Notes: a model not told the origin generated them from the sequence alone. DNA of 64,000 nt from Candidatus Omnitrophota bacterium (GCA_015494465.1 WGBD01000006.1:10431-74430); one strand, 5' to 3'; shown: positions 2,068 to 64,000, counted from the stretch's first letter. Numbers and translations are program-made.

Positions 2068-5000
2068 TCATTCGTAGAAAACCACGCCACCTTTTACCGG
2101 CAGGCGGGTGCGCTTGCCCGGCTGTAATAGGCGATTTACCGGATAGAACCTCGTCCTCCACGATTCCACAACCGAAAACATCGCGGATCTTTCCTCCCCA
2201 GTGAACAGATACCGCAACTCCCAGAGGAAGTTCACCGCATAATCTACCTTCCTGACCAAGTTCCTACCTTTCCTCTTGAGGATCTGAGAGAGATATTCCT
2301 TGACGAACGGATACCTACTACCTATCCCCAACCTATCCCAGCGCTCAGGATTAAAGGAGAGGAGGTTGAACAAGACCTTAGATCCCAAGCCCGGTGCCCG
2401 ACTCACTTTCTCACTGAGGAGTTGATAACTTAGAGGGACACCGCTCCAGGCCGAAACGAACCCCAACACCCCTTCCCGCGCAAGTAGGTCCAGAACCTTG
2501 AACGGATCGTAATAGGTATCCTCTATCCGGGTATTGGCCAGATCGTAGAGAAAGCGGGGAGACAGTCTAGAGCTGAGACTCGAGAGGGCCTCCAACCTCA
2601 AGCATTCCCCATAGGGGCCCATGTGGGATATAATGTGGAGAACAAGGTTCTCTGCCTTCCTCTGCAGGGAATCGTTACTCCGGAGGATGCGGTATATCTG
2701 GGAGCGATATTTTGGATACAACTTAGAGACGGTACTGCCTATCTTGAACAGGATCCCCTCTCCATTCGAGGTCAATACTCGCCTGGGCCTCCGAGAAAGC
2801 CTCTTCCAGATATACCACCCTGTCAATCCAATTACTGCAGGGAAGAACAACGGCGTAATGGAAAAGAGACTCGCCTGCAATAAGCTGTACTTGATTCCGT
2901 TCAAGGTCAGGGGCAATAAGAATAAAGCAAAGGAATTTAACTTAGTTCCAGCGCCTTCTTCCAATCGCATCCGGATCAATCTGGTGTCCAGCGTCCTATA
3001 GAACTTGCTCAGATCCTCTGCAGCATTTTTGACCAACTCCCTCTCATCCGGACGCATGCCTTTACCGACGAATCTCTCCTCAAATTCCCACAAAAGCCTT
3101 GCGTCGTGCTCGAAGTCCTGCATATGATTCAAATAGTACTCAATCAAGACATCGTTCACTTTTTCGTCTCCAGTCAACATACTCAAAACGCACAGGGCCG
3201 TCCTCCAGCGCGCATAGTGAGCGAGGTTGTTAAACCTGTCTGGCTGGACTCCTGCCCTAATCATCCGAGAAAACACCCTAGGATTAATCACTATCACATC
3301 GCGCAAGAACTTCCTGTAAGCCAAAACCCTTGCCTCGTCTTCGAAGAATTCCGCGATCCCACTGTAATGAGGCAAAAGGGTAAAATTGTAGGAGGCTTTC
3401 CATCCTGGAATCATCTTCGCACGGAACAAGATTGGCCAGGACTCAACGGGAACCATACCGCTCCCAGTATAATATATCGAAAAGAACTTAAGGATACCTG
3501 AATAAAAGCCCTCAAGCTCCTGTTTAGTAAAGTCCCTCGCCTTTCTTAAGCGCTCCAGATACATTTGGGCCCACTCTTGGGACTTCTCGGGATCTCTAGG
3601 AGCCAACGGCAACAGACTGTACAACGATATCACGATTGCAGGAGGTCCGTGATGTTTAGGTCCAACTTTATAACTTGAAAGTTTGCGCAAGGGGTTATAG
3701 TTTTTAGGGGGAAGGTGCCATAAGAACGATATGCTCGTGTGCTTCCACTTCTTGACGATCCGGGCCACAGGCATCTCCAGATCGATGGCGGGAACGGCGA
3801 AAGTTATAATCCCGCCGTTAGGATAGAAAAACACGAAGGCACCCATATCAAAAACCCGGGCCAATTCTCCTCCCATGGATTCTTTGCTCTTCGAGGAAAC
3901 GGTTATATGTAATATTGATTGAGAACCTATGGACAATGAGCCTATGCCTCTTAGTCTATTACTGGGTTTTATGTGGTTCGCCCGTTCGATTATCTCTCTA
4001 CTAGAGGGTAAACCAACGAATACCGGAAATGCATCGTTGACGCGGGGGAATAGATCTTCTATTCGAATGTGGTACTGCTTCCTCTTCATCGAGAACTCGC
4101 AAATCTTATTCCCCTCGGAGTCAAAGACAACTCGTTTTCCAAGATCGGGGAAGGATTCCACTGTAACCTTTCCCAAGATCAGATTGAGCTTACCCTGTCT
4201 CTTAATCAGTTTTATCACCCTCTTATTCTCGGACTTTTTCTCCACTTTGAAGATCGCTTCTTTCTTTATCCACCAAGGCAGGACCCGACGCACATTGATT
4301 TCTACCCTAGCCATACTCACCTGATAATGCGTCTTACGCCACGAATCGTACTCGACGATCTTCACCTTATCCTTATCTTCGCCTTTAAACCACATAAAGG
4401 TAGATTCTCCCAGTTCCCTCCATTGGCCGGGAGTATAGATTATGTCCAGATTCGGGTGCTTGCTAAGCACCCTAAAACGATTCTTGGCTTTATCCACCAA
4501 GATCACAAACACCTCTTCCCAGTTTATCCAATTTTCTCTCTTTAAATAGAAGGTAAACTTAATGTCAGGGCCTGCATTCTCCTCCAATACACCTTTCATC
4601 GTGTAAGAGCCATTCTTCAGCAACTCGTAAAGTGGACTGCCTTCCCAATACACGGACTTAGCAAATCCGCACTTATAACCGCCGAAGTCCAAAGAAAATG
4701 CCGATTGGTGCCCCACGAATACAGGATGCCTGGTCTTTACGAACTTCCCACTCTGCACCGGTTTAACATAGTCCGGGAACAGCTTGGCGGGGGACAACAC
4801 GAGCTCCCGTTTCCCGGACTGTCCGAAGACAAACTTATTGACCTCCTCCCAGCCTAAGAAAGAAGAAATACTCATCCCGTCTTTATCTTTACGATACAAG
4901 CGGGCTCGCATCCCATTCTCCGAGAAGACGAAATCGAGAGAAAAAGCATAAGAGAGCCTCTGTTCGTCTCTTAAGAGATCCACTCCACGCTTCAGGATCA

Positions 5001-8000
5001 TGCTTCCCACGACCGGGGTTATCTGTTCGTAAAAATCTATTATGATCGTTTTTTCTTTTTCTAATTCTAAGACTCGGGAGACGACTATGTACTTATTAAT
5101 GTCTACCCTTTTAGGTTGAGCCCACAACCCGGATAGACTCGTCCACTTGGGCATGCGTAGCATTACCCACTCACAATCGATTGGATAATCCCTGAAGAAC
5201 TTCTCTACGAGAGAAGAAGCCAATAACATCTTTTTACCACCAGCCGCGTTCGCAAAAGATATCTTCTTTATCTCTCTCCACCAAGACCCATCGTAAGGAA
5301 TGGACTTTTCTATGTAGGAAAGCATATCTAGAAAGGTCATGTCTTCCTTACCGTTGGGTACCTTGCAAAGGCAAAAAGACTTGGAAAGACCTGCTAAGAC
5401 CAGATAATACCTGTAATCTCGCTTCTCGTCCTCTGGAAAGGCGATGCAATACATAGCCTTGCGCATGTAATCTAGCTCCCAGTTGCGGGTTATTTTAAAG
5501 ATAGGGTCGATAGAATCAACTATCGGTTTTCCCGAACCCCCTTTTAACCCAATCCAGCTCACCGTCTTTCGAACATGCAGGGCTTTACTCACCGGAACCG
5601 CAACCAACGAGACCTTTAAGACCTTATCAAGCAACTGCTTGGCTATACCAAATTCGTCGAAGATCTCCACTCTAGCACCGTATATCACCATCCTCGGTAC
5701 CCACTGCCCTCCTAACGGATGGGGCTCCAACCACACGATAACTGGCACATAACGACCGCCTATCTGGGCCCCTACTACCGCTATCTTGGTCTCATTCCCA
5801 AGCTCAAGACCCAGCTTTTTTAGTTTGTTCAAGAAGGGTTTCCGCTTCTCTATGCCCTCCCAGATCACCTTCTCGTGTCCCTTCAAAAGATCCGCCACCT
5901 TAAGAAGGGAGTCGGTCGCAACCACACTGCGATCTCCGTGGAGCTCTAGGTAGAGGCTGGTAAGGAGGGACCTGGTAGCTTTGAAGTTGTCAGGCAGGCG
6001 GTTCACCGGTTTAGAGAAGTGAAGTTCGAAGTGCTTTCCTCCCCTTTTATCGGGGGCCCTCTGCCTGGGCCTTCCTAGATACTTAGCAAGTATCGGCGGC
6101 AAAACCACCTCTGGAGGGGATTTCAAGTTAGGTCCCCACAGGGACAAGTACTGGTCCAGATTATTCAGAAAGTCCCTCAGCCAGCGCAGATCCATGGAGG
6201 CCTTAAGGGGCAAACCTTTTATCTGATGATACCTCAACTCTACCCTATCCACGATATTGCCCCTACCCCAGTCGACCTCGTAATGCCTAAACACCTCTAG
6301 AGGGAAGGTGTTTGGTATGTTCAGTTCTTTTATCAACTCTTTTCCCGAATAGAACCTCACCACTATGTAGGAACTCCCCAGCGGATTGGTCTTTCTCCAG
6401 GCCTCAAGCCAATCCTCTTTGAAGCTAGGCAGGTGTTTCACTGCCTTTGCCAGGTAAAGCTGTTGAAAGTCCTGAAAGATCTTCAGGTCAGGATCCATCG
6501 AGCCAGTGTATTCTGCCACCCTCTCTGCTATCTCGTTCAGGGCCTCGATCAAAGGCCCGTATGCTTCTCGGGCCTTTTCCTCCTCACCTTCTTTACTGGC
6601 GATGAGATCCTTCAGCTCCCCTGCCAAGGGGACTTCAGCGATATCGACCTTCTCTGCCTCCAATCTGGACCGGACCTCCTCCAATAAGGAGCTGACTAGT
6701 GATGCTTTCCCTCGGCTAAACTCTACCATCCGCTTCAGGCTATCCTCCAACCACTTAAGCTCCCCTTTCCTCTTCTTCCACTGCTTGGGCTTGGTGAAAG
6801 AGAAGGTCTTTGCGTACCTGACGAGGGACTCCACTAACCAACCCTTTACCTCTTTCGAATCGATTATTCCCCTGGATAGGACTTCGTCTGTCGGCTCCTC
6901 CAGGGCATCGATCGCAGTTAGACCAATGGCAGGGATCAGGTTCTCACCAAGGGACCTAGAGAGGACGGTTCTTAGTCCATCCCAGAACTCCTCTTTGTTG
7001 TTCACCGCAAGCTCGCCCACGACGAAGGAGAGATAGGAAAGCACCATCATCCTAGACCAAGCAGAACGGTCTTCGATTCCCTTCAAGATCGGGGCGAGTT
7101 CGCCCTTTACCACGAACCAAGGTAAATCTTCTTCTGGGAGATCCAAGGGGCCACTCAGATCGTAGGCCAGAGAATCCAGCCTCTCCTCCATATCCTCTGT
7201 CTCCTCCAGCCCACGGGAGGCCAAAACCGCAGAAGCGAAGGCCTTAAAGGCCCTACCGTAAAGGTGAAAGATCCTCAGATCGCTCGCTAAGAGATAGTCT
7301 GCGTACCTCCCCAAGGACTTGACCTCCTCATTTTTGTCCCAGCGATCAAATCGCTCCAGGGCCACGACCAACATAAGCGATGGTAGAACTCCACCAGAAA
7401 AGGCCTTTCGATCGAGAATCGCCGGCATCTTGCCCTTGAGGAGAGATCGGATCCCCTCCAAAGACTTCCTCGCGGATCTGGGGATCCCTTGGGCAGACTT
7501 CGAGCTCAAGGTCTTTTCGATCACTGCCTTCACATCCTCAGGCCTGTCTAGCCACCAAAGCAGTATCAACAAGGGTTCAACTACTCCGGGATAGGTGAAC
7601 GAGAAACCACCGGAAAGGCGTTTGAGGGAATCGACGATCTCACTCAAGCCTTTTGGTTCTGACGGACCTGACCGGTCGAGGCGATAGACCACTGCCTCAA
7701 GTAGATCTGCCAGGAAGACTTCCTCCTCAGGTGCAATTCCGTCTACGGACTCCAACCTATCCTTCAAGGCAGAGACCCAGTTCTCTCCCTGAAGCAGGAC
7801 CAAGGCACATGAGAAAAGCATGCGATACTTCCTATAGTCGGGATGGGAGAGCAACCGCTTGATCTGGCCGATCAACCAGTTGGTTTGATCAGGGGATAGA
7901 GAAGAAAGATCTCGATTCAACTCTGCAAACCTCCCTTCCCCCAACAAGCCAGCAAAACGAAGAGCGCACACGAAGGGATCGGTTTGCCAGTAAGGTTCGC

Positions 8001-10983
8001 TGAAGGAGCGGAGCACATCCACCCTCCCGATCTCTAGGAGGGTCGCACTCCAGGCCCGGACGATCAACTCCTTACTGCCCTCCAGTGCACCGATTTCGTC
8101 TTCCCCCGCTGACCCTAAGGCCTCTGCTATCACCTTCTCATTTATAGCCCGACTCTTGACAAGATAGACCAAAAACTGGATCAAAGACTCTATGCCCCCT
8201 TCCCGTGCCACCCCCAGAAACACCCGAGCCACCGCGCTGGAATCCTCTTTCAGACTGACGGTGAAGGTCTGAGCGACCCCGGGATTATTGGAACTTATCA
8301 GGGCCCGAGAAAGCTCAAAAGAAAATTCGTCTATCTTAGAAGGGCTTGCTTCTCCCCCTCTCTCCCTGGCTAGGTCCATCCAAAACTTCACTATCCCCGT
8401 CGATAACCTGATCAACCTCTGTTTAGAGGCCGACTTTTTCGCAAAGGCCTTCACCCATTCGTCGCGAACAGTCTCAGGGCGAGATGCGAACACCATCGTC
8501 AACCACTCAGTTGCAGTAGGGAGGTCCTCTTTGAGAAGTCCGGGAAAGTCCTTCACCCGGTCCAATATCTCTCCCGCTACCTCGCTCTTCAACAAATCGT
8601 CGACTCCGACAGCCTTTTCCATCCCAAAGAAAGCTTTCGCGATTTCCTGAAATACTCCTTCGTAGGTATTACTGTAACGGATCCTTTCGTCCAACAACAA
8701 ATCAATGGCGTTCGAGAAGGCACTTATCCGGTGCTTCCACTTATCCAGATCCTTTGCGGTGGCGTTATAGCTGACCAGGAACCTGGCCAGATTACTCACC
8801 AGCAGATCTAAGGTCTCCCCCTCCACTTGGGCCCCTAACAAGACCATCATCGCGCTGGCGAATCTAATCCCCTCGAGCTTCTTGTCATCCGATGTCATCT
8901 CCTCCAAGTTAAATCTCCCAAAAGACCTCACCAGCGCACTATACACTGGGACATAGGCAGGTTCCCAGATCACCTCTCCTCTGGGGAAGAAGGGTTGAGC
9001 AACCCTGGTAACCCACAAATAGAACAATTCCGCATCCTTGCAGTCAGATATTGGTGCGGAATCGATCCAATCGGCCAATTTTTCAGGAGAAAGTCTGTCA
9101 ATCGTCTTCTGCCAACGGGGCGTATCCGCCAACAGCTCCTTCAACTCTTCAGCCGACTTCGGGGCTGCCAACTCGACCGTTTTTCCTTTGGACCCAGGGC
9201 GTTTGCCTTTCTTTTTCTTAACCGACAGCCCTAAAAGTGGTAAGAATCCAAGGGAGGGGAACAAGGCAGATCCCAAAACCGCGACCAAAAACAAGACCAC
9301 CCCGTCGCGGTTATCCTTTAGTAATCGAACTGCCCTGAGGAGCACCGTTCGGAGCCTATCGCTCCACTTCCCCGTAACTGGGCCCGCCTTCAGAGGGGTC
9401 TTCCAGGTGATAATCGTGCCCGTCCTCCTTGCCACCTCTCTCAACAACGGCCGAAGCGAGGGCTCTTGCTTCCAGGCCTCAAAAAAGGCATTTACCACCG
9501 AATAGGAGTGCTTCCCTCCCTCTAGACCCAACAGGTCTCTCAACTCTCTCAAGGTCGAGACGAACAGATCTACGGTCTGGTCTTCAGATAAGTAAAGACC
9601 GTCCCCAACTTGGGGGGTGGCGACCATCTCCAGCTCCGCGGTAGGAGCGGTTGGATCGATCTTCCTGACCACTATCAAGGATAACGGCAGGCACCCCGCC
9701 TTGACGGGGAGATTGGCACCGTTCTCAATCCAGGCCCGGGTAAAGATCTCCCCCACCTGTCCGCATAGGCCAATGCGATATTTCTCGTCGAACTCGCTAG
9801 CAATGGCCCCTTTAAAGAGGGGCAAGGGCAGACCTGTCTTCTCCTCGACGGACGAGACCCGCCCTTTGCTTCCGTAGGCTATAACCGTCTTGTCTGCGAG
9901 GTAGTCGTAGAGAATCGCGAGCCATTGGCCTCTTCCAAGCCCGATCACATCCACCAGCTCTAACCTGACATCCTCGGGATACCTCATCCCCAGTTCCCTC
10001 TCCAAGGCCTCTAATACCTCTTTTGAGACCTCCTCTTTGGCAAAACGGATGTCCTGATACCCTACCGGAACGGGAGCCAAACGCAAAAACCCTTGATCGT
10101 CTACCTCCTTGCGCCTCAACCAGGAAAATACCGACTTCATCTTTATCCCACCCAGGGCCCTGACCAACTTCTTCCCCCGAAAGGAGAAGGAGACGGGAGA
10201 GAAGAATCTGTCCAGATAGGCGCGTTTCCACTCGTAAGGGTCGTCGCTAGGATCGTCGTCGTACAACCAGCTACCCAGCACCTCTACACCCCGCAAGGGA
10301 GCCCTCTTGGAGTCCAAAGTCTTCTTCCCCCTCCGAGAGAGCCTCCGCTTGAGGTGATTTGCCAACAGGTACACCGCAAAGGCCTCCCTCAACCTCCTGT
10401 AGGCGGGATCGCTGGATATCTTCTCCTCCAGATCCCTGGCAACCTGAGAGTAGAGGTCTGCGCACTCCCGGGAACCGCCCTTGAACTTGACCTTCAGCTT
10501 CACCTGGGAGACGAAGAACCTGTCTTCCTTTCCCTCCAGATAACCACGAGCCGGCTCCACCCAAAAGAAGGGGAAGTCAACCAATCCCTCCACATCTCCC
10601 GCAACCAGTCTGCGCAGGAGGATCGTCTCGAGGTCCTCCTTAAACTGGTAATCCATCGCCAAGAGCAGCCTCCCCACAGGGTTGTGCAGGAGTTCAGGGG
10701 GAAGCGGAGGATAGCCCGGAGACAGGTTCACCCACAGGATCTCCGGTGGTATCCTGAGGAAGGTCTCAAACAACCTCTCCACCTCTGATCTGGATAGAGA
10801 TAACCCCTCCTTGGGATACAGGATCCGATAGGTCCCCTTTCCTACCTCCAGCCCCAAGGGCACGGAGAAGGAAGGGCTACCCCCCCAACCTGCCCAGGCG
10901 TAGCCCGGGAATAGGGTGGTCGTCCCAAATATAAAGGCCAGGAGGCAAGCCTTTACTCTCGTCCAAAAAGGATCAGACATCAT
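2068..10983 (-). CDS. giant (2971 aa) uncharacterised secreted / membrane-anchored protein; no recognisable catalytic family
   Basis: Uninterrupted 8.9 kb ORF. N-terminal hydrophobic signal/anchor (MMSDPFWTRVKACLLAFIFGTTTLFPGYAWAGW). Internal TM helix near aa 535-560 (VVLFLVAVLGSALFPSLGFLPLLGLSV) followed by the polybasic patch KKKKGKRPGSKGK. Long Leu/Glu/Ala/Arg-rich, probably helical-repeat, region. Two hydrophobic segments near aa 2680-2720 (FALFLLPLTL..., ITPLFFPAVIGLTGWYIW followed by KRLSRRPRR). SD-like GGAGGG about 9 nt upstream of the ATG. Confidence 0.8.
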   Translation of the reverse strand: MMSDPFWTRVKACLLAFIFGTTTLFPGYAWAGWGGSPSFSVPLGLEVGKGTYRILYPKEGLSLSRSEVERLFETFLRIPPEILWVNLSPGYPPLPPELLHNPVGRLLLAMDYQFKEDLETILLRRLVAGDVEGLVDFPFFWVEPARGYLEGKEDRFFVSQVKLKVKFKGGSRECADLYSQVARDLEEKISSDPAYRRLREAFAVYLLANHLKRRLSRRGKKTLDSKRAPLRGVEVLGSWLYDDDPSDDPYEWKRAYLDRFFSPVSFSFRGKKLVRALGGIKMKSVFSWLRRKEVDDQGFLRLAPVPVGYQDIRFAKEEVSKEVLEALERELGMRYPEDVRLELVDVIGLGRGQWLAILYDYLADKTVIAYGSKGRVSSVEEKTGLPLPLFKGAIASEFDEKYRIGLCGQVGEIFTRAWIENGANLPVKAGCLPLSLIVVRKIDPTAPTAELEMVATPQVGDGLYLSEDQTVDLFVSTLRELRDLLGLEGGKHSYSVVNAFFEAWKQEPSLRPLLREVARRTGTIITWKTPLKAGPVTGKWSDRLRTVLLRAVRLLKDNRDGVVLFLVAVLGSALFPSLGFLPLLGLSVKKKKGKRPGSKGKTVELAAPKSAEELKELLADTPRWQKTIDRLSPEKLADWIDSAPISDCKDAELFYLWVTRVAQPFFPRGEVIWEPAYVPVYSALVRSFGRFNLEEMTSDDKKLEGIRFASAMMVLLGAQVEGETLDLLVSNLARFLVSYNATAKDLDKWKHRISAFSNAIDLLLDERIRYSNTYEGVFQEIAKAFFGMEKAVGVDDLLKSEVAGEILDRVKDFPGLLKEDLPTATEWLTMVFASRPETVRDEWVKAFAKKSASKQRLIRLSTGIVKFWMDLARERGGEASPSKIDEFSFELSRALISSNNPGVAQTFTVSLKEDSSAVARVFLGVAREGGIESLIQFLVYLVKSRAINEKVIAEALGSAGEDEIGALEGSKELIVRAWSATLLEIGRVDVLRSFSEPYWQTDPFVCALRFAGLLGEGRFAELNRDLSSLSPDQTNWLIGQIKRLLSHPDYRKYRMLFSCALVLLQGENWVSALKDRLESVDGIAPEEEVFLADLLEAVVYRLDRSGPSEPKGLSEIVDSLKRLSGGFSFTYPGVVEPLLILLWWLDRPEDVKAVIEKTLSSKSAQGIPRSARKSLEGIRSLLKGKMPAILDRKAFSGGVLPSLMLVVALERFDRWDKNEEVKSLGRYADYLLASDLRIFHLYGRAFKAFASAVLASRGLEETEDMEERLDSLAYDLSGPLDLPEEDLPWFVVKGELAPILKGIEDRSAWSRMMVLSYLSFVVGELAVNNKEEFWDGLRTVLSRSLGENLIPAIGLTAIDALEEPTDEVLSRGIIDSKEVKGWLVESLVRYAKTFSFTKPKQWKKRKGELKWLEDSLKRMVEFSRGKASLVSSLLEEVRSRLEAEKVDIAEVPLAGELKDLIASKEGEEEKAREAYGPLIEALNEIAERVAEYTGSMDPDLKIFQDFQQLYLAKAVKHLPSFKEDWLEAWRKTNPLGSSYIVVRFYSGKELIKELNIPNTFPLEVFRHYEVDWGRGNIVDRVELRYHQIKGLPLKASMDLRWLRDFLNNLDQYLSLWGPNLKSPPEVVLPPILAKYLGRPRQRAPDKRGGKHFELHFSKPVNRLPDNFKATRSLLTSLYLELHGDRSVVATDSLLKVADLLKGHEKVIWEGIEKRKPFLNKLKKLGLELGNETKIAVVGAQIGGRYVPVIVWLEPHPLGGQWVPRMVIYGARVEIFDEFGIAKQLLDKVLKVSLVAVPVSKALHVRKTVSWIGLKGGSGKPIVDSIDPIFKITRNWELDYMRKAMYCIAFPEDEKRDYRYYLVLAGLSKSFCLCKVPNGKEDMTFLDMLSYIEKSIPYDGSWWREIKKISFANAAGGKKMLLASSLVEKFFRDYPIDCEWVMLRMPKWTSLSGLWAQPKRVDINKYIVVSRVLELEKEKTIIIDFYEQITPVVGSMILKRGVDLLRDEQRLSYAFSLDFVFSENGMRARLYRKDKDGMSISSFLGWEEVNKFVFGQSGKRELVLSPAKLFPDYVKPVQSGKFVKTRHPVFVGHQSAFSLDFGGYKCGFAKSVYWEGSPLYELLKNGSYTMKGVLEENAGPDIKFTFYLKRENWINWEEVFVILVDKAKNRFRVLSKHPNLDIIYTPGQWRELGESTFMWFKGEDKDKVKIVEYDSWRKTHYQVSMARVEINVRRVLPWWIKKEAIFKVEKKSENKRVIKLIKRQGKLNLILGKVTVESFPDLGKRVVFDSEGNKICEFSMKRKQYHIRIEDLFPRVNDAFPVFVGLPSSREIIERANHIKPSNRLRGIGSLSIGSQSILHITVSSKSKESMGGELARVFDMGAFVFFYPNGGIITFAVPAIDLEMPVARIVKKWKHTSISFLWHLPPKNYNPLRKLSSYKVGPKHHGPPAIVISLYSLLPLAPRDPEKSQEWAQMYLERLRKARDFTKQELEGFYSGILKFFSIYYTGSGMVPVESWPILFRAKMIPGWKASYNFTLLPHYSGIAEFFEDEARVLAYRKFLRDVIVINPRVFSRMIRAGVQPDRFNNLAHYARWRTALCVLSMLTGDEKVNDVLIEYYLNHMQDFEHDARLLWEFEERFVGKGMRPDERELVKNAAEDLSKFYRTLDTRLIRMRLEEGAGTKLNSFALFLLPLTLNGIKYSLLQASLFSITPLFFPAVIGLTGWYIWKRLSRRPRRVLTSNGEGILFKIGSTVSKLYPKYRSQIYRILRSNDSLQRKAENLVLHIISHMGPYGECLRLEALSSLSSRLSPRFLYDLANTRIEDTYYDPFKVLDLLAREGVLGFVSAWSGVPLSYQLLSEKVSRAPGLGSKVLFNLLSFNPERWDRLGIGSRYPFVKEYLSQILKRKGRNLVRKVDYAVNFLWELRYLFTGEERSAMFSVVESWRTRFYPVNRLLQPGKRTRLPVKGGVVFYE

Positions 10984-14778: not shown

Positions 14779-16940
14779 CAGGTCCGCACCTTCCTACCAA
14801 CGAGCACCAAGGGAGACGCTATGAATATGGTAGAATAGGTCCCGGAGATCACTCCAACCAGCAACGCGAAGGCAAAGTCGTTAAGAACCTCACCGCCAAA
14901 CAGGTATATGGACAGGACCACCAAGAGCGTGGTGAAGGAAGTAATGATGGTCCTGCTCAGCGTCTCGCTTATCGCGGTATTTATGATCTCGTAGAGCCCT
15001 GCCCGGCGCATCACCCTGCGCTTTTCCCTAACCCGGTCGTAGATCACGATCGTATCGTTCACCGAATAACCTGCAATGGTCAGCAGGGCGGTTATGATGA
15101 GCAGGTCCAACTGCCTGCCGGTGAAGGCGAGGAAACTCAAGGTCACCAAGACATCGTGCAACAGGGCAACTACCGCTGCCACCGCGAAGTTCCAGTGGTG
15201 AAAGCGGAAGGCCACATACACGAGTATCCCTATCAAAGACCACACCACCGCAAGGGTTGCCTTCTTCTTGAGGAGTTTTCCAATGGACGGACCTACCCTC
15301 TCAACGCGCAACAACTTGGCCCCCAGTTTTTCCCCAAAGGCCTTGTCCACCTTATCCACCACATCGTCCTTGGTCCGGATTATCACCGAACTCTTATCGT
15401 CCCTGAAGCGCTGTATCAGGGCATTCTCTACACCCAATTCCTTGAGGGTCTGCCTTATCTTGGCGGTATCCACTGGATGGTCAAACCTGTACTCCTGGAG
15501 ATATCCGCCCGCGAAGTCTATTCCAAACATGCTCTGGCCCCGGTAGAGAAAGACGCCTGCTCCACCTACGATTACCGCCAGAGAAAGCAGATAGGCCCAC
15601 CTGCGCCAAGCGAGGAAGTCGATCTTCACTCCCTCAAACACACTGGACATCGGCAACCTGCTCAGTCCGGTGTACTCCAAGAGGAGTTCAAAGACCAGTC
15701 GGGTAAAGACTATCGCGGTGAACATACTGGCCAGGATTCCTATGGACAGCGTTACCGCAAATCCCTTTATCGGGCCAGTCCCGAACTGGAAAAGCATCAC
15801 CGCAGCTATCAAGGTGGTGAGATTGGAATCCACTATGGTCAGAAAGGCCTTCTCGTACCCTGCCCTTATCGCGCTCCTCAAGGGTGAACCCGCACGCAAC
15901 TCCTCCTTGATGCGCTCGTTTATCAGGACATTCGCATCCACTGCCATACCCAAGGTGAGGATGATACCTGCAATGCCCGGCAGGGTTAGGGTCGCCTTGA
16001 ACAGCCCCAATCCCCCCAATATGATGAGGACATTGAACAAAAGGGCGACATCCGCGATAAGCCCTGCCAGACGATAATACAACAGCATAAACAAGAAGAC
16101 CAAAACAGCACCTATAAGGGCAGACTTTATCCCCTGGCGGATAGAATCCTGTCCCAACAACGGGCCAACGGTCCTCTCTTCCACCACCTTCATAGGGGCA
16201 GGCAGGGCACCCACCCGCAAGACCAGTGCCAGGTCCTGGGCTTCTGGCACGGTGAAGTGGCCGGTTATGGAGGCCCTACCCCCGGTAATCGGCTCCCTTA
16301 TCTGGGGGGCGGACTGGACCTTACCGTCGAGGACTATCGCCAGATTACGACCTACATTCTTCCGGGTAATCTCTGCGAAGACCTTGCTACCCTCGGGGGT
16401 GAATTCCAAGGAGACCGAGGGTTGATTGTACTGGTCAAAACTCATGTACGCCTTCTTAATGGCATCCCCGGTGAGCAGAGGCTTCTTCTCCACCAGATAG
16501 GGCCGACCTTCCTCGTCGTACAGGACCTCGTAATCCTCAGGTATGGGTTCACCTTTCAAGGCCTTGGCCAGCAACTGGGGATCCTCCACCACCAACTTGA
16601 ACTCTAACTGGGCGGTCTTGCCCACGATGTCCAAGGCCCGCCTCCTGTCGGTCACTCCCGGCAACTGCAGGACTATCTCGTCCATCCCCTGGCGGGTGAT
16701 GGAGGGTTCCTTCACCCCGAACTCGTCAATACGATTGCGAATCACCTCAAGGGCCCTCTCTATCGCATCTTCCTTATCCTTGGGAGGGATCTGGCTGGTA
16801 TCCACCTTCAAGACGAGGTGCATACCCCCCTTGAGGTCCAATCCGAGGTTGATCTTCTTATCCAACGGGAGGGCCGACCAGAGGGAGAAAACTAATACCG
16901 CCAGTACGACCGCCAATCGCCACTTGACCCGCCTGTCCAT
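14778..16940 (-). CDS. secDF: protein translocase subunit SecDF (fused SecD-SecF)
   Basis: 720 aa single ORF. SecD N-terminus KINLGLDLKGGMHLVLKV and periplasmic domain, then a second 6-TM SecF-like half (FRFHHWNFAVAAVVALLHDVLVTL). Confidence 0.88.
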   Translation of the reverse strand: MDRRVKWRLAVVLAVLVFSLWSALPLDKKINLGLDLKGGMHLVLKVDTSQIPPKDKEDAIERALEVIRNRIDEFGVKEPSITRQGMDEIVLQLPGVTDRRRALDIVGKTAQLEFKLVVEDPQLLAKALKGEPIPEDYEVLYDEEGRPYLVEKKPLLTGDAIKKAYMSFDQYNQPSVSLEFTPEGSKVFAEITRKNVGRNLAIVLDGKVQSAPQIREPITGGRASITGHFTVPEAQDLALVLRVGALPAPMKVVEERTVGPLLGQDSIRQGIKSALIGAVLVFLFMLLYYRLAGLIADVALLFNVLIILGGLGLFKATLTLPGIAGIILTLGMAVDANVLINERIKEELRAGSPLRSAIRAGYEKAFLTIVDSNLTTLIAAVMLFQFGTGPIKGFAVTLSIGILASMFTAIVFTRLVFELLLEYTGLSRLPMSSVFEGVKIDFLAWRRWAYLLSLAVIVGGAGVFLYRGQSMFGIDFAGGYLQEYRFDHPVDTAKIRQTLKELGVENALIQRFRDDKSSVIIRTKDDVVDKVDKAFGEKLGAKLLRVERVGPSIGKLLKKKATLAVVWSLIGILVYVAFRFHHWNFAVAAVVALLHDVLVTLSFLAFTGRQLDLLIITALLTIAGYSVNDTIVIYDRVREKRRVMRRAGLYEIINTAISETLSRTIITSFTTLLVVLSIYLFGGEVLNDFAFALLVGVISGTYSTIFIASPLVLVGRKVRT

Positions 16941-16957
16941 ACAGGAACTCCTTTAGA

Positions 16958-17218
16958 TTACAGTTTTCTGGCTATCGCGGACCTGTCTACGTCTATCTTG
17001 GCATCCCCGCCTATTCTCAGGGTAATCACATCGTCCCGCACCGAAGCCACCATCCCGTGTATCCCCCCGATGGTGACCACCTTATCTCCGGGGCGCAGAG
17101 ACGCTATCATCCTCTTCCGCTCCTCCTGCTCCTTTTTTGCGGGTAATATTACAAGAAAGTAAAATACCCCCAATACGATCAGAAAGGGGACCAACTGGAG
17201 GATTAGGTTACTGTTCAT
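16958..17218 (-). CDS. yajC: preprotein translocase subunit YajC
   Basis: 86 aa. Single N-terminal TM helix followed by the conserved PGDKVVTIGGIHGMV region typical of YajC. Confidence 0.85.
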   Translation of the reverse strand: MNSNLILQLVPFLIVLGVFYFLVILPAKKEQEERKRMIASLRPGDKVVTIGGIHGMVASVRDDVITLRIGGDAKIDVDRSAIARKL

Positions 17219-46957: not shown

Positions 46958-47400
46958 TTACGGACAACCCACACCTTTAGAACCGCTTTGACTTCCGGAT
47001 GTAACTGTATCTCTACGTCGTATATGCCGAGTTTCTTTATCGGGGTGGGCAGGACCACCCAGTCCTTGTCTATCTCTATCCCCTCCTGCCTGAGGGCCTC
47101 GGCTATGTGGGCCTCGGTTATACTGCCGTAAAGGGTATCCTCTTCATTGGCATCTGCCACGATGTTGACCGACAGGGATCCTATCTTTTGGGCGAGTTCT
47201 TCGTATCTGGCCTTCTCCCTGGCAAGTTGCTTTTCCCTGCGCCTCTTTTCCTCCTCCCATATCCTCAGATTTTCTTTGGTGGCCAGATAGGCATAGCCCT
47301 TGGGTATGAGGTAATTGCGGGCGTATCCATCCTTGACCTTTACCACATCCCCCGCCTTACCGAGGTTCCTTACATCCCTTCTCAATATCACCTCAGCCAT
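46954..47400 (-). CDS. rplI: 50S ribosomal protein L9
   Basis: 148 aa. MAEVILRRDVRNLGKAGDVVKVKDGYARNYLIP is the canonical L9 N-terminus. Confidence 0.93.
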   Translation of the reverse strand: MAEVILRRDVRNLGKAGDVVKVKDGYARNYLIPKGYAYLATKENLRIWEEEKRRREKQLAREKARYEELAQKIGSLSVNIVADANEEDTLYGSITEAHIAEALRQEGIEIDKDWVVLPTPIKKLGIYDVEIQLHPEVKAVLKVWVVRK

Positions 47401-47415
47401 CGCTATCGCCTCCTC

Positions 47416-47652
47416 TTATCGCCTGACGAAAGGGAGTAGTGCAAGGATCCGGGCGTTCTTTATGGCATTGGCAAGCCTGCGCTGGTGCTTTGCACAGGCG
47501 CCACTGCTCCTGCGGGTAACGATCTTTGCCTTCTCGTTGATGTACCTCTGGAGCAATTCTACATTCTTATAATCTATGACCAACGATGGATCCTTGCAAA
47601 ACGGGCATTCCTTTTTCTTCAAAGGCTTCTTGGCCTTCTTTTTCTTCGCCAT
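47416..47652 (-). CDS. rpsR: 30S ribosomal protein S18
   Basis: 78 aa. CPFCKD...[13 protein letters not shown] and [17 protein letters not shown] match S18. Confidence 0.93.
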
Positions 47653-47670
47653 ACCGACATCCCTCCTCGT

Positions 47671-48153
47671 TTAAAAAGGCAAATCGCTATCTTCGGTTGG
47701 TCCTGCATCGCTCAGTTCGTCCACCGCATTGACGAAGTCTTCGTCAAAACTCACATCGGAAAAGTCCACTTCTGCAGGCTCGCTCTCGGAGAACTCCTGA
47801 GTGGCCTGAGCTACGGGGCCTCTGGGCGAATCCAGGAAGTGAACCCTGTCTGCCCTGACTTCTACCACACTGCGCCTGGTCCCATCGGGTGCGTCCCAGG
47901 ACCTTGACTGAAGCCTGCCCTCGACCAAGACCCTCCTGCCCTTGGACAGGAACTGCGAGCACAATTCCGCCTGCTTGTTCCACACCACCACATTGACATA
48001 GCAGGTCTCGGTCTTCCTCTCTCCCGCCTTATCCCTGAACTGGGTATTGATCGCCAAACGCATCGTGGCCACCGGCGTCCCTGCAGGGGTATACCTCAAT
48101 TCAGGATTGCGGGTAAGATTGCCTATCAAAAAGACCTTATTAAAAGAGACCAT
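47671..48153 (-). CDS. ssb: single-stranded DNA-binding protein
   Basis: 160 aa. OB-fold N-terminus MVSFNKVFLIGNLTRNPELRYTPAGTPVA, acidic C-terminal tail ending DSDLPF. Confidence 0.93.
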   Translation of the reverse strand: MVSFNKVFLIGNLTRNPELRYTPAGTPVATMRLAINTQFRDKAGERKTETCYVNVVVWNKQAELCSQFLSKGRRVLVEGRLQSRSWDAPDGTRRSVVEVRADRVHFLDSPRGPVAQATQEFSESEPAEVDFSDVSFDEDFVNAVDELSDAGPTEDSDLPF

Positions 48154-54844: not shown

Positions 54845-54877
54845 CGAGACAGATTCTTTCTGGAAGATTTTGTCTCA
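54845..54877. repeat. palindromic hairpin repeat, copy 1 (GAGACAGATTCTTTCTGGAAGATTTTGTCTCAC)
   Basis: Inverted repeat GAGACA...TGTCTC with a conserved loop. The TGA stop of the thioesterase gene lies inside its GTGAGAC arm (minus strand), and a T-run follows on the minus strand. Same orientation as copies 2-4. Confidence 0.75.
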
Positions 54878-60343: not shown

Positions 60344-60839
60344 ACTCCTCCTCCAATCTCTTAAGGGCCTTCAGAGAATCCTCTTTCATAGGTCCGCTTG
60401 CCCTGTCTATTATCAGCTTCCCGTCCAGATGATCTATCTCGTGCTGGATAACCCTTGCCAGAAGGCCTTCCCCCTGCCAGACCTTTTCTTTCCCGCTTAC
60501 ATCAAGGGCCTTAAACTTTATGTAACCCACTTTTCGTCTAACCGGCACATACACCCCCGGCAGGGAAAGACAGCCCTCCTCCATCTCCTCCTCTTTTCCA
60601 CCCACCTCCAATATCACCGGATTTATCAACTTAAGCAGGCCCTTTCCCACATCCACCACGATAATCCTCTTGTTCACCCCCACCTGCGGGGCAGCCAGAC
60701 CTATCCCGTCGTACTTGTACATGGCCCGAGCCATCTCCGAGAGGAACCGGGCAAGGTCCTCGTCGAACGACTCCACCTCGTCAGACCGCCTTCGCAACAG
60801 CGGATCCGGATAATGCACTATCTTAAGCATCAGATTCAC
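60318..60839 (-). CDS. def: peptide deformylase
   Basis: 173 aa. [26 protein letters not shown] motifs. Confidence 0.93.
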
Positions 60840-61191
60840 CCCTTATTATTATCGGCTCGGGCAGTTTGCCCCCGGAGATCTCCTCTTCACTGGCCCACCA
60901 ATAGGACAAAACGATTATCTCGTCCCCCACCTGTGCGGTGCGGGCAGCCGGGCCGTTCAGACAGACCACGCCCGAGCCCCTCTTACCGGGTATGGCGTAG
61001 GTCTCTATACGGGAGCCGGTGCTGAGGTTGAGGACCTCCACCTTCTCGTAGGGCAGGATGTTCGCCCTCTCCAGCAGGTCCTCGTCGAGCGTAATACTGC
61101 CCTCGTAATAGAGTTCCGTTTCGGTTACCCTTATCCTGTGTATCTTTGACTTCAACACGCATCGATTCATAATCACACCCCAACCGCTCAT
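60823..61191 (-). CDS. panD: aspartate 1-decarboxylase
   Basis: Probable start MNRCVLKSKIHRIRVTE (internal Met at about 61170). Self-processing site YEGSITLD and the CLNGPAAR region. Confidence 0.88.
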   Translation of the reverse strand: MSGWGVIMNRCVLKSKIHRIRVTETELYYEGSITLDEDLLERANILPYEKVEVLNLSTGSRIETYAIPGKRGSGVVCLNGPAARTAQVGDEIIVLSYWWASEEEISGGKLPEPIIIRGESDA

Positions 61192-61257
61192 TCCCTAACT
61201 CAAGATTTTACTACAAAAAGCCAAAAATCGGCAGGATATTATCCATCCCATCCGCCT

Positions 61258-61293
61258 TATGAGACGGATTCTTCCAGGAAGATTTCGTCTCAC
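61258..61293. repeat. palindromic hairpin repeat, copy 2 (TATGAGACGGATTCTTCCAGGAAGATTTCGTCTCAC)
   Basis: Stem GAGACG/CGTCTC with the conserved loop. Lies 18 nt 3' of the AAA-ATPase stop and upstream of panD. Confidence 0.8.
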
Positions 61294-61311
61294 ACGATCG
61301 GGTTAACCCGG

Positions 61312-62673
61312 TCAATTTGGGGAGAAATAATTGGTAATCTCCGACTGGAGGTCAAAGACAAGGCAGGCCTTAAGGCTATAATCCTTAACTTTTGCCTCTT
61401 TGCGCAGGTCGTAATTTACCAGAAGGGCCTTCTGAGGCCGATACTTGGCTAAGAATGAGTAATAACTTCGTGATAACGATATCTCTTTTAATCTCTTGGC
61501 CTTTACTTCTATAGAGGTCAATTTCCCATCACCGCTTCTCACTACAAAGTCGAGTTCGGCCTTTTGCAAAGTTCTCCAATAGTGCAAAGTCGTCGGGGCC
61601 TTGATTATCTTTAACAATTCACTCGCTACTGCATTTTCAAATAGAGCACCTTTATCATCTCGCCTCTCGAGATTCTCAAAACGCCCAAGGGCAAAGTTCC
61701 GCAGGCCTGTATCTATAAAGTAAACTTTAGGGGTCTTGATAAGTTCCTTTTTCCTGTTGGTAAAAAACGGCGGAACCAGAGAAATAACGAAGGTATTTAC
61801 CAGATCGTTCAGATACTGTTCCACCGTCTTCACCTGCAATCCAACTTCCCCTGCCAACTGAGAAACATTTAACAGGCTTCCTGCCTGGATTGCCAACAAA
61901 GACACCAACTTGTTAAAGGCCATTATATTTCTGACTTTAAGAAACCCCAAAATGTCCTTCTCTAAATAACTGGTATATAATTCTTCTAAGATGGAACTCT
62001 TCTTCTCGGAGCTCTGTTCCACCACTACCCGGGGATAACCTCCAAAAACTACAAACTCACTTAATATGCGAATCAACCTTTCTGCATCGTACTCTATGAG
62101 ATCTTCTCCCTTTTCTACCACCTCAAATAAGTCCTTATCAACATACCTCAGATACTCGTTGGCGGAGAGGGGCATAACCTGAAAAACCTTTTTACGCCCG
62201 GTGAGGGCCTCGTGGACCTTGCTCTTTATTTCCAGAGATGAAGACCCAGTCAAAACGAATTTTACCCCAAGATTCAAATCGTAAATTCCTTTGATAAAAA
62301 CCCCTGCGTTTTCAAGTCGTTGGACCTCATCGATGAAAAAATACATAACCTCGCTTTCCTTTTTACGGGATTTAATAAAGGAAATAACATCACCCTGATC
62401 CTGAAAGAAGGTTAGGTCTCTTACGAGGTCCAGATTGAAACGGAATATATTGCTCGGATTGATCCCTTTCTTTTCCAGTAAATACCTCTCTATCTGATCC
62501 AGAATGGTGGTCTTACCTACTTGACGAGGGCCAACGATTACCGTGATCTCTTTTTCATCCAGATGCTCTATGATGGAGTCTACTATATCCCTCTTAATCA
62601 TACCTAATCCTCTCCCAATCCAATATTTTTTACCCTCTATTACAAGAATAACCTGTATTAAAATTGTAGTCAA
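61312..62673 (-). CDS. AAA+ superfamily ATPase with C-terminal DUF4143 (COG1373-type)
   Basis: Walker A TVIVGPRQVGKTTIL, Walker B MYFFIDEVQ. The long C-terminal region matches the DUF4143 arrangement. Probable start at the internal Met MIKRDIVDSI (~62601). Confidence 0.75.
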   Translation of the reverse strand: MTTILIQVILVIEGKKYWIGRGLGMIKRDIVDSIIEHLDEKEITVIVGPRQVGKTTILDQIERYLLEKKGINPSNIFRFNLDLVRDLTFFQDQGDVISFIKSRKKESEVMYFFIDEVQRLENAGVFIKGIYDLNLGVKFVLTGSSSLEIKSKVHEALTGRKKVFQVMPLSANEYLRYVDKDLFEVVEKGEDLIEYDAERLIRILSEFVVFGGYPRVVVEQSSEKKSSILEELYTSYLEKDILGFLKVRNIMAFNKLVSLLAIQAGSLLNVSQLAGEVGLQVKTVEQYLNDLVNTFVISLVPPFFTNRKKELIKTPKVYFIDTGLRNFALGRFENLERRDDKGALFENAVASELLKIIKAPTTLHYWRTLQKAELDFVVRSGDGKLTSIEVKAKRLKEISLSRSYYSFLAKYRPQKALLVNYDLRKEAKVKDYSLKACLVFDLQSEITNYFSPN

Positions 62674-62703
62674 CTGAAATTTTGATTAACTTTGTATGTA
62701 ATA

Positions 62704-62739
62704 TATGAGACGGATTCTTCCAGAAAGACTCCGTCTCAC
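62704..62739. repeat. palindromic hairpin repeat, copy 3 (TATGAGACGGATTCTTCCAGAAAGACTCCGTCTCAC)
   Basis: Perfect 9-bp stem TGAGACGGA/TCCGTCTCA. The relE/parE TGA stop lies inside its GTGAGAC arm. Flanking 12-mer TCGGGGAGGCGC is shared with copy 1. Confidence 0.8.
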
Positions 62740-63020
62740 TTCTCGGGGAGGCGCCTTATCACCGTCTGGTAAACCTCTTTTCTGTGACCTATCTTTAGGA
62801 TTACCACAAACTCACCCTCTACCCGATAAATAACTCTATAGTCCCCTACCCTTAACTTGCGATACCCGCGCAATCCCCTACGCAACGGTTCACCATACAG
62901 GTCGGGATCCACCAAAATCCGCTTTTCTATTGCAGATTTGATCCTATCCCTCATATTCCGAGGGATATTAGGAAGGTCGCACTTTTTTACATCCGGATGG
63001 TAAACCGGAGTAAAGCCCAT
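62736..63020 (-). CDS. type II toxin, RelE/ParE family
   Basis: 94 aa. ...YRVIYRVEGEFVVILKIGHRKEVY is the RelE/ParE C-terminal signature. Abuts the antitoxin gene (stop-start adjacent). Confidence 0.8.
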   Translation of the reverse strand: MGFTPVYHPDVKKCDLPNIPRNMRDRIKSAIEKRILVDPDLYGEPLRRGLRGYRKLRVGDYRVIYRVEGEFVVILKIGHRKEVYQTVIRRLPEK

Positions 63021-63296
63021 CTACCCCCACACTTCCTCATGCGACAATCCAGAATCCAATGAAAAGGAGTTATCCCTCTTCCTTGCAATCTCATTCCAAT
63101 AAGAATCCTCCTGCAACTCCACAGCCTGTTTCAATAATTCCCTAGCCACAAGAGACATAGACAACCCGGACTTACGCGCCATTCTGCGGATAGATTCGTA
63201 CAACTCCGGCTCAAGGACGACATTCAAGCGTGCGTTTTTGGTGGGCATAGTATCACCTCCAAAACGGAGTGTATCACAAGTGATGACCCGGGTCAA
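63021..63296 (-). CDS. ribbon-helix-helix (CopG/RHH-type) antitoxin
   Basis: KNARLNVVLEPELYESIRRMARKSGLSMSLVARELL is a beta-strand plus two helices, the RHH fold. Probable start at the internal Met MPTKNARL (~63248). Confidence 0.7.
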   Translation of the reverse strand: MTRVITCDTLRFGGDTMPTKNARLNVVLEPELYESIRRMARKSGLSMSLVARELLKQAVELQEDSYWNEIARKRDNSFSLDSGLSHEEVWG

Positions 63297-63305
63297 TCTT
63301 TACCC

Positions 63306-63340
63306 TGTGAGACGGATTCTTCCAGAAAGATTTCGTTTCA
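63306..63340. repeat. palindromic hairpin repeat, copy 4 (degenerate: TGTGAGACGGATTCTTCCAGAAAGATTTCGTTTCA)
   Basis: Same loop as copies 2-3. The right arm is mutated (CGTTTCA versus CGTCTCA). Ends 4 nt from the TGA stop of the 81-aa ORF. Confidence 0.7.
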
Positions 63341-63344
63341 TTTG

Positions 63345-63590
63345 TCATTTGTTGGATGCTCGTGTATCGTTTTGGGGAAGTTCTTCTTTGCTCACCTCGG
63401 TTCCATCGGGCATCAGATATCGAATCTTACCATCTCTAAGGTAGACCACCGGGACCCCTAACTTAAGATGCCTCTCTATAGCCTCTTTAATAGCCTCATT
63501 CATTATCCTTTCCAATGTCTTACCATCAAAATCGTTTGGCACCTCATTCATCACAATCCTCCTTAAATCTTTCCAAATAGACTTTATCAA
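63345..63590 (-). CDS. hypothetical small protein (81 aa), partner of the upstream zeta-like ATPase gene
   Basis: ORF overlaps the upstream gene by 47 nt in the track. The internal Met MNEVPND (~63551) would give an 8-nt overlap. No recognisable family. Confidence 0.4.
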   Translation of the reverse strand: MIKSIWKDLRRIVMNEVPNDFDGKTLERIMNEAIKEAIERHLKLGVPVVYLRDGKIRYLMPDGTEVSKEELPQNDTRASNK

Positions 63591-64000
63591 CTACCTCCCC
63601 GTCGGATGCTATAAACCGAGCTTTACTTCCACCGTTATCAAAGAGATACCATCTATCGGCCAATAGCCTGTACTTATACCAAAAGTTGCACCTTGCCCGA
63701 TAATATCTTCTTATAACCACATCCTCAGGGATATAATGTCCTCCCAGCTGGGATCTATACTTAATCCGTTCAATACACACGCTAACATCCGCCACATCCA
63801 AAAAGAAAATCTTTATTACATAACCCCTTCTCTTGAGGTCCTCTATCACTTTAGCCCATATTTTCCCTGCCAGAGTCGTCTCAAAGCCAAAATTCTCACC
63901 TTTTTTCATCAACGAATGTATGCGCTGGAGCATTAATCTCCCAGCCTCTATTTGGGCATAGGAAGGCTCAAAGGGTGATAGTCCAACCGCTATCGCATCC
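63544..64000 (-). CDS. zeta-toxin / COG4185-like P-loop kinase-fold protein, C-terminal part (5' end beyond window)
   Basis: The frame stays open to the window edge; the extension reads DAIAVGLSPFEPSYAQIEAGRLMLQRIHSLMKKGENFGFETTLAG. The FETTL(S/A)G motif and following layout resemble zeta-toxin/AAA_33-type ATPases. Confidence 0.5.
   Translation of the reverse strand, partial: DAIAVGLSPFEPSYAQIEAGRLMLQRIHSLMKKGENFGFETTLAGKIWAKVIEDLKRRGYVIKIFFLDVADVSVCIERIKYRSQLGGHYIPEDVVIRRYYRARCNFWYKYRLLADRWYLFDNGGSKARFIASDGEVVDKVYLERFKEDCDE

Follow-up and report, generated by a model that had tools for sequence, protein, structure and literature searches.

The window analysed here, a 64,000-nt stretch of DNA from a Candidatus Omnitrophota bacterium (GCA_015494465.1, WGBD01000006.1:10431-74430), ends inside a 2.9-kb islet that lies between panD and a DedA-family gene just outside the window and consists of three units and four copies of a 33-nt palindrome, one ahead of the first unit and one behind each unit. 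It is well supported that this patch is a foreign, horizontally acquired accessory addiction/defence islet, since its GC content and third-codon-position GC (GC3) deviate from the core and the islet is either absent from related genomes or present there in variant form. The islet is a small hotspot of gene gain and loss, and not an integron. On balance, we think it probable that it is a mosaic, built and edited module by module at a cluster of palindromes beside panD that resemble repetitive extragenic palindromes (REPs). It would then exemplify how a very compact genome, from a lineage without cultivated members, keeps a small set of selfish or defence genes and edits it, with modules exchanged singly between strains beside a core operon. 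The novelty lies in a further toxin-antitoxin/defence islet and a further REP-like repeat family, both of known kinds.

How far does the islet extend, and what marks it as foreign? Its GC content is 0.431 over 2859 bp, against a core mean of 0.539 (sd 0.024, minimum 0.462) in windows of the same size; local values across the islet fall to 0.40-0.47, and its genes have a GC3 of 0.45-0.60 compared with 0.67-0.72 in the flanking genes. The original prediction, made from the DNA alone, had described this low GC as well as a switch in gene content beyond panD to an ATPase, a RelE/ParE toxin with an RHH antitoxin, a small open reading frame (ORF) and a zeta-like gene. Both descriptions hold, the latter confirmed by Pfam and TIGRFAM, and its proposal of an accessory addiction/defence islet is borne out by composition, by relatives without the islet and by a match to a PADLOC defence model. 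All window genes lie on the minus strand. On the panD side, the precomputed Pfam annotation lists only housekeeping genes over ~61 kb, including ribosomal proteins, DnaB, BamA, Lpx genes, ClpC, Mla, SecDF and IleRS; panD itself heads a conserved block, panD-def-DUF6485-pdxJ, that is syntenic in relatives.

The other end can be followed in L001, a 20-kb locus from contig JALUEM010000002.1 of GCA_027052805.1 with its genes on the plus strand, which matches the window at 99.97% identity across the overlap. The expectation that the islet would run on well past the window did not hold: it ends ~180 bp further on, where the initial ~36 codons of the zeta-like gene and one more flanking palindrome (copy 1) give way to a DedA/VTT-family gene followed by a giant gene of 4813 aa, with no further cassettes or recombinase nearby. 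Neither the 8.9 kb examined beyond DedA nor the ~61 kb beyond panD contain an annotated integrase or transposase, an ARAGORN scan of the window found no tRNA, and blastn of the islet against plasmids and phages gave no match. The classical signature of a genomic island, integration at a tRNA or tmRNA gene with a flanking integrase, is therefore absent at the islet.

Comparison with related genomes provides evidence for an islet edited in modules. As would be expected of an insertion, the islet is missing beside panD in the closest relative by PanD (92% identity; L007 and L008, from GCA_054004955.1 and GCA_054005615.1); a sister strain has a variant islet. The closest relative retains the downstream block from panD-def-DUF6485-pdxJ through 4HBT-tpiA-glyQ, and upstream of panD it has a radical-SAM gene and a 275-bp spacer with three tandem, gene-free palindromes. 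Palindrome copy 4 of the islet and the panD-promoter flank are orthologous to the third of these tandem copies (aligned at L007 9879-9963), and blastn homology to L007 begins exactly at copy 4. In the orthologous 4HBT-tpiA spacer, the relative has two tandem palindromes (L007 16297 and 16361; 16297-16391) and the window one, so copy number changes at conserved sites. The palindrome is thus an element of the host lineage and not specific to the islet, as it also occurs in this core spacer and in the clusters of the islet-free relative. Relatives at 76-77% PanD identity have neither palindrome nor islet. A different gene lies upstream of panD in each relative, from which the site appears to be a synteny breakpoint, and the palindrome family seems, in the genomes compared, to be restricted to near relatives.

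The sister strain (European Nucleotide Archive (ENA) sample ERZ23491094, JOHN19-1, together with Logan run SRR13622961) is represented by three contigs. L031 carries the giant gene, DedA, two palindromes and the start of the zeta-like gene; L018 carries the end of the 68-aa ORF (orf68), one palindrome and the ATPase (95% amino acid identity), without the RHH-RelE unit; and on L019 the ATPase is followed by two palindromes. Relative to the islet the strain is a mosaic, with the orf68 segment 80% identical and the adjoining ATPase segment 94%. The individual modules also recur in other surroundings. In L020 (GCA_015494585.1), core genes and no palindromes surround an ATPase homologue of 76% identity that shares the promoter region. 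L020 is a metagenome-assembled genome (MAG) with a GC content of 0.44; its blastn homology to the islet begins 20 nt after the palindrome and stops 24 nt before the ATPase stop codon, and this homologue also turns up in the same samples as the islet organism. The RHH-ParE operon, together with its TTGAC-17-TACACT promoter, is found at three further places, on L025, L026 and L027 (toxin identity 71-74%). L025 (1-4182) and L026 (1-2668) are low-GC contigs (0.43 and 0.36) from the same ENA sample, rich in toxin-antitoxin genes; there the operon is preceded by a decayed or diverged palindrome, and intact, tandem or decayed palindromes lie between HicAB and AbiEii-like genes or remnants. In L027 the operon lies without a palindrome within an aromatic-amino-acid operon of another organism. 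Homology to each of these outside contexts stops at or within ~20 nt of the palindrome. In these alignments the hairpins coincide with the boundaries of independently exchangeable modules, which travel between genomes without the palindrome and, within the host lineage, sit between palindromes.

The palindrome itself carries further traces of recombination. The 33-nt sequence TGAGACGGATTCTTCCAGAAAGATTTCGTCTCA has three islet copies in the window and none in 100 shuffles, and a covariance model built from 18 copies found no palindrome in the window beyond these three and a diverged core copy (Table 1). Density is 5 in the 73 kb surveyed here and 5 in 20 kb of the closest relative. In gene sense the consensus reads (A)A-TGAGACAAAATCTT-TCTGG-AAGAATCTGTCTCA-TAAG, with arms of 13 nt and a centre of 5 nt. 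Mismatches at pairs 10.28 and 12.26 are kept in nearly all copies, and the orientation of the arms relative to the genes is identical in all ~21 copies. With the arms fixed, the centre occurs in two reverse-complementary states, TCTGG and CCAGA (alignment A2, columns 17-21), a flip of the hairpin loop such as recombination within the inner stem would be expected to produce. Pair 9-29 is G-C in all four islet copies, A-T in the core copy 6.4 kb away and in the relatives' copies, and an A.C intermediate in the DedA-side copies of the sister strain. The islet copies share this compensatory G-C and have therefore undergone local concerted evolution, that is, recombination or gene conversion among copies. 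A perfect 38-nt direct repeat flanks the zeta module (L001 8833-8870 and window 63345-63308, 100% identical). Exactly at the edges of three copies, 7-10 nt are duplicated in tandem (CAAATGA twice, CGTCTCAT twice and ATAATGAGAC twice); these duplications are located at window 63338-63351, L001 8863-8878 and L003 ~1520-1540 and suggest that the base of the hairpin is prone to slippage or to staggered breaks that are then repaired.

How might these observations fit together? The palindrome cluster upstream of panD may be a fragile, recombinogenic spot as well as a synteny breakpoint, at which foreign modules would have been captured singly. Modules could then be gained, lost, duplicated and homogenised via recombination at or between the directly repeated palindromes, with host homologous or illegitimate recombination as the most likely agent. 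Toxin-antitoxin addiction, and possibly phage defence, would keep the modules in place, and the palindromes probably also insulate or terminate transcription units.

Several points weigh against this interpretation. The census of the palindrome covers ~73 kb (the window plus 8.9 kb) of a 782-kb contig. The gene beside panD differs in every relative, which gives no hint of the ancestral neighbour. Covariation is modest, with double changes at four pairs and 85% of cells paired compared with 36-55% when the partner is slid, and it rests on few independent events. Between the islet and the sister strain, homology is missing from the 12-25 nt directly right of the palindrome and present in the adjacent promoter; neither a clean insertion nor a clean deletion from hairpin to hairpin would therefore account for the RelE polymorphism, and turnover of the palindrome with its tail is independent of that of the modules. 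With hairpins of moderate stability only and no U-tract, a terminator role is weakly supported. A repeat that colonises every real intergenic gap would also land at module boundaries, and that the palindromes cause the gains and losses, beyond marking where they occur, is a step that we infer.

The last of these points depends on how gaps are distributed. The core of the window is very compact, and its only true gaps of at least 100 nt are the four that hold a palindrome; two further stretches that look like gaps (16940-17208 and 47400-47671) in fact hold a yajC-like gene and the gene for ribosomal protein S18. Among gaps of at least ~50 nt in the 73 kb, a palindrome is present in 4/4 islet gaps compared with ~1/5 core gaps (~0.04 by a hypergeometric calculation done by hand). 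The gene-hairpin-gene-hairpin layout that had been predicted is real, with a palindrome after every unit; it also partly reflects how few real gaps there are, one hairpin per unit being in part one hairpin per real intergenic gap.

Could a dedicated enzyme act on these sites? An enzyme encoded in trans, for instance a REP-associated tyrosine transposase (RAYT) or IS200/IS605-type Y1 enzyme, an IS110-type recombinase or a Xer-like tyrosine recombinase, may recognise the palindromes and excise and integrate palindrome-module-palindrome units as true cassettes, analogous to integron cassettes or pdif modules. Sequence as well as structure is kept across copies and species, including the asymmetry of the arms at the two mismatched pairs and the single arm orientation, and arms of 13 nt around a 5-nt centre resemble recombinase core sites. 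In both strains the zeta module lies between copies that are identical or nearly so, the unit of polymorphism is one module plus one palindrome, and toxin-antitoxin-rich contigs from the sister-strain sample are likewise punctuated by hairpins (L025 and L026). However, no candidate enzyme, RAYT included, is encoded within the ~70 kb examined, the non-homologous tails after the palindrome make the junctions unclean, the ATPase and RHH-ParE modules of L020 and L027 did not carry the site along, and gene-free tandem palindromes are common. We therefore consider a dedicated trans-acting enzyme unlikely. It is more doubtful still that the palindromes are the sites of an undescribed, REP-like cassette system without an adjacent integrase, with mostly toxin-antitoxin/defence cargo in clusters scattered over the chromosome. 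If the joints are recognised by an enzyme, however, this would add a new short-site cassette mechanism beside integrons, pdif and REP/RAYT, and the palindrome would offer a sequence handle for variable gene cargo in organisms known only from metagenomes.

Conversely, the palindrome may have no role in mobility at all, being a passive REP-like element or a terminator/insulator in every real gap, with the islet having arrived independently of it, for instance by transformation and illegitimate recombination at a breakpoint. Its presence in the core spacer and in the relatives' gene-free clusters, its constant position between a stop codon and the next promoter, the occupation of all window gaps of at least 100 nt and the independent turnover of its tails are all in line with such a passive element. 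Yet module homology breaks at palindromes in every comparison, the concerted evolution of the islet copies is not shared by the core copy 6.4 kb off, one module lies between the two halves of a perfect 38-nt direct repeat, synteny breaks where the cluster sits, and the sense-strand RNA hairpin is weak and has no U-tract. A purely passive palindrome thus seems improbable to us.

The reading of the islet as a degenerate integron array (a cluster of attC sites lacking integron-integrases, CALIN), with the hairpins as unusual short attC sites and IntI encoded elsewhere, is extremely unlikely and was rejected: like integron cassettes and CALINs, the islet has co-oriented units that each end in a conserved hairpin, a toxin-antitoxin-rich content and a unit set that varies between strains, but neither strand of L001 8781-11840 holds a RYYYAAC...(35-130 nt)...GTTRRRY pair, the repeat measures 33 nt against at least 55 nt for attC (55-141 nt), the surrounding 70 kb are free of intI, every unit comes with a promoter-like site of its own, and the same hairpin, a host element, occurs in core-gene spacers and gene-free tandems and is missing where the modules occur elsewhere. 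Integron cassettes are mostly promoterless and carry attC along, whereas the islet genes leave the palindrome behind between genomes. Of the cassette resemblance seen in the original prediction, the functional analogy of hairpins at module boundaries stands, and membership of an integron-like array does not.

Which known elements does the mosaic islet, as we favour it, resemble most? Like the REPs and bacterial interspersed mosaic elements (BIMEs) of proteobacteria, its repeat is a short, imperfect, lineage-specific extragenic palindrome of ~33 nt at the 3' ends of genes, found singly or in tandem (here in tandems of two or three) with a copy number that varies between close relatives, and the tie of REPs and BIMEs to hot spots of rearrangement and insertion is a further likeness. 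In contrast, the islet palindrome is unrelated to REPs in sequence and lacks their GTAG-type 5' motif, many of its copies overlap the upstream stop codon, and its host is uncultivated, with Omnitrophota MAGs as nearest named relatives (by the names of PanD and RelE matches). BIMEs alternate in orientation, whereas the copies of this family all have one arm orientation and only the 5-nt loop flips. REPs, which are 20-40 nt long, number tens to hundreds of copies per genome and have a cognate RAYT gene; for the islet palindrome, five copies lie in the 73 kb surveyed here, and the ~70 kb examined for enzymes hold no RAYT gene. The islet is also akin to the pdif modules of Acinetobacter plasmids, which have XerC/D sites, and to the minimal mobile elements of Neisseria: all are small, often encode toxin-antitoxin systems and carry no recombinase, pdif modules being bounded by short imperfect palindromic sites and minimal mobile elements being swapped between conserved flanks. 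However, pdif sites are 28 nt long (11-6-11), alternate in orientation and lie on plasmids, whereas those of the islet are 13-5-13, all direct and chromosomal, and a minimal mobile element has conserved flanks, whereas the gene flanking the islet on one side is not conserved in relatives.

Table 1. Coordinates of the islet modules, their genes and the palindrome copies. Positions are those of the window unless L001 is named.
Feature	Position	Strand	Remarks
Module 1 (zeta-like gene and 68-aa ORF)	63345-64000, continuing outside the window	-	Pfam and L001
Zeta_toxin-family P-loop protein, 187 aa	63544 to ~64107 (extended coordinates); L001 8914-9477	-	PF06414
68-aa ORF (orf68)	63345-63551	-	called gene
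Module 2 (RHH, RelE/ParE and promoter-like site)	62736-63296	-	Pfam, TIGR02385
RHH antitoxin	63021-63248	-	RHH_1 E 4e-5, 24 bits vs cutoff 20.5
RelE/ParE toxin	62736-63020	-	ParE_toxin E 2e-12, 48 bits vs cutoff 23; TIGR02385 RelE_StbE 29.3 vs 27.9
Module 3 (AAA_14 and DUF4143 ATPase, 429 aa, single gene)	61312-62601	-	DUF4143 E 1e-42; AAA_14 E 1e-30
panD (aspartate 1-decarboxylase)	60823-61191	-	Pfam Asp_decarbox E 8e-42; first core gene, right flank of the islet
Palindrome copy 1	outside the window, L001 8833-8870 (38-nt match)		supplies the DedA-family stop codon
Palindrome copy 2	63308-63340	-	just after orf68
Palindrome copy 3	62706-62738	-	TGA is the RelE stop codon; best-paired copy; DNA fold -13.1 kcal/mol, z -6.5
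Palindrome copy 4	61260-61292	-	between the ATPase module and the panD promoter
Core palindrome copy (diverged, A-T subtype, flipped loop)	54845-54877	-	between the 4HBT thioesterase gene and tpiA

The palindrome is closely tied to the ends and starts of transcription units. In most non-tandem copies its TGA ends the upstream gene or comes directly after that gene's stop codon, as for DedA, RelE, the radical-SAM gene, CitMHS, orf68 in L018 and the 4HBT thioesterase in both species (the core copy supplies its stop codon here). Some 10-30 nt beyond the palindrome there is a promoter-like site, and each of the co-oriented islet units is preceded by a putative sigma-70-like site, called by its match to the consensus. 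Fold stability is moderate (DNA -4 to -13 kcal/mol, RNA -7 to -20 kcal/mol), the gene-sense strand contains a 3x3 internal loop and no U-tract, and of three copies folded as RNA, two are more stable on the antisense strand. A canonical intrinsic terminator as the sole role is not favoured, given the missing U-tract and the weaker sense RNA fold in two of three copies, and neither is a transcription-factor operator, as the palindrome centre lies at varying distances from the promoter (~-51 to -84) and some copies are tandem or decayed.

No match to the islet, palindrome included, was found in Rfam at E <= 1. Scans of genome, metagenome and viral contig collections for the exact pattern returned a single real match, L003 (the others being chance, non-palindromic matches). 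L003 (JALVLD010000054.1, 1743 bp), which is binned as 'Candidatus Dojkabacteria', has a palindrome identical to the core copy of the window and is probably a mis-binned fragment of the lineage of the islet host. The short metagenome contigs L002, L009, L018 and L019, which come from several samples, start or end inside a palindrome; assemblies thus break at the repeat, and such islets are therefore hidden in fragmented MAGs. On L026 the palindrome is of the diverged subtype GAAACAAAAAGTTTCTGGAAGAAATTGTTTC, and an 'alternative pairing' upstream of each hairpin, considered as covariation, is better read as what is left of a decayed tandem copy, namely its right arm.

Module 1 encodes a zeta-like protein with a visible Walker A motif, GGPNGVGKTT, whose full sequence scores 37.6 bits for PF06414 Zeta_toxin against a cutoff of 22.3. 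Its P-loop kinase domain is shared with zeta/PezT systems. In those systems, however, the epsilon or PezA antitoxin is encoded upstream, and no antitoxin of either type is found upstream of the zeta-like gene, where only palindrome copy 1 and the DedA gene are present, the palindrome ~45 nt ahead of the start codon and the DedA-family stop codon, supplied by its TGA, ~75 nt ahead. Instead, a novel 68-aa protein is encoded downstream, translationally coupled to the zeta-like gene by an overlap of 8 nt, because of which it may be a functional partner of the zeta-like protein. This small ORF had been predicted correctly, though not its length of 81 aa, which corresponds to the longest frame with a TTG start. 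Its family is rare (24 matches at E <= 1e-3 among 1.8e9 representatives, ~20 of them small homologues) and shares a GVP...DGK...PDG motif. The AlphaFold2 model, with a mean predicted local distance difference test (pLDDT) score of 75.7, predicts one helix and three strands. We found no match for the protein in Pfam, NCBIfam, PADLOC, PHROGs or PDB sequences, nor for the model in a Foldseek search of the PDB at E <= 0.001; profile matches to designed propeller proteins are repeat-motif artefacts. Beside a zeta-like kinase, such a rare family is a candidate new antitoxin or regulator.

In module 2 the RHH antitoxin gene lies directly upstream of the toxin gene, abutting it at 63020/63021, and is preceded by a promoter-like site at ~63268-63296 (TTGACC-17-TACACT). 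A toxin of the RelE/ParE fold and a small DNA-binding antitoxin encoded upstream in one operon are what defines type II toxin-antitoxin systems, and judged by family scores the pair would be a bona fide member. The promoter-like site of the module 3 ATPase lies at ~62645-62673 (TTGACT-17-TATTCT). The suspicion that this gene serves defence gains from a strong match to the PADLOC candidate PDC-S01 (PDLC04789, E 2.3e-89, residues 1-397), a very common, unvalidated single-gene defence candidate in which an ATPase is fused to a PD-(D/E)XK domain (PMC12988326). Like PDC-S01, the islet gene combines an ATPase with a PD-(D/E)XK-like DUF4143 domain in a single gene and matches its hidden Markov models, which makes it a candidate defence gene. 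Its closest named relatives are from Patescibacteria, at 55-72% identity.

Finally, a few observations concern the surroundings of the islet. Over the 11.3 kb shared by the window and L001, only two substitutions and one 1-nt indel separate them, each of these in the promoter region of the DUF4143 ATPase (window 62608 and 62631-62632; L001 10389-10412). A second patch of low GC (0.37-0.42) at L001 6350-7100 lies inside the 4813-aa beta-helix/polysaccharide-lyase gene and encodes an Asn/Gly-rich beta-helix repeat segment, not a separate insertion. Giant ORFs flank the region on both sides, one of 2971 aa at window 2068-10983 and the 4813-aa one outside the window, and giant genes in a compact genome fit an Omnitrophota-like lineage.

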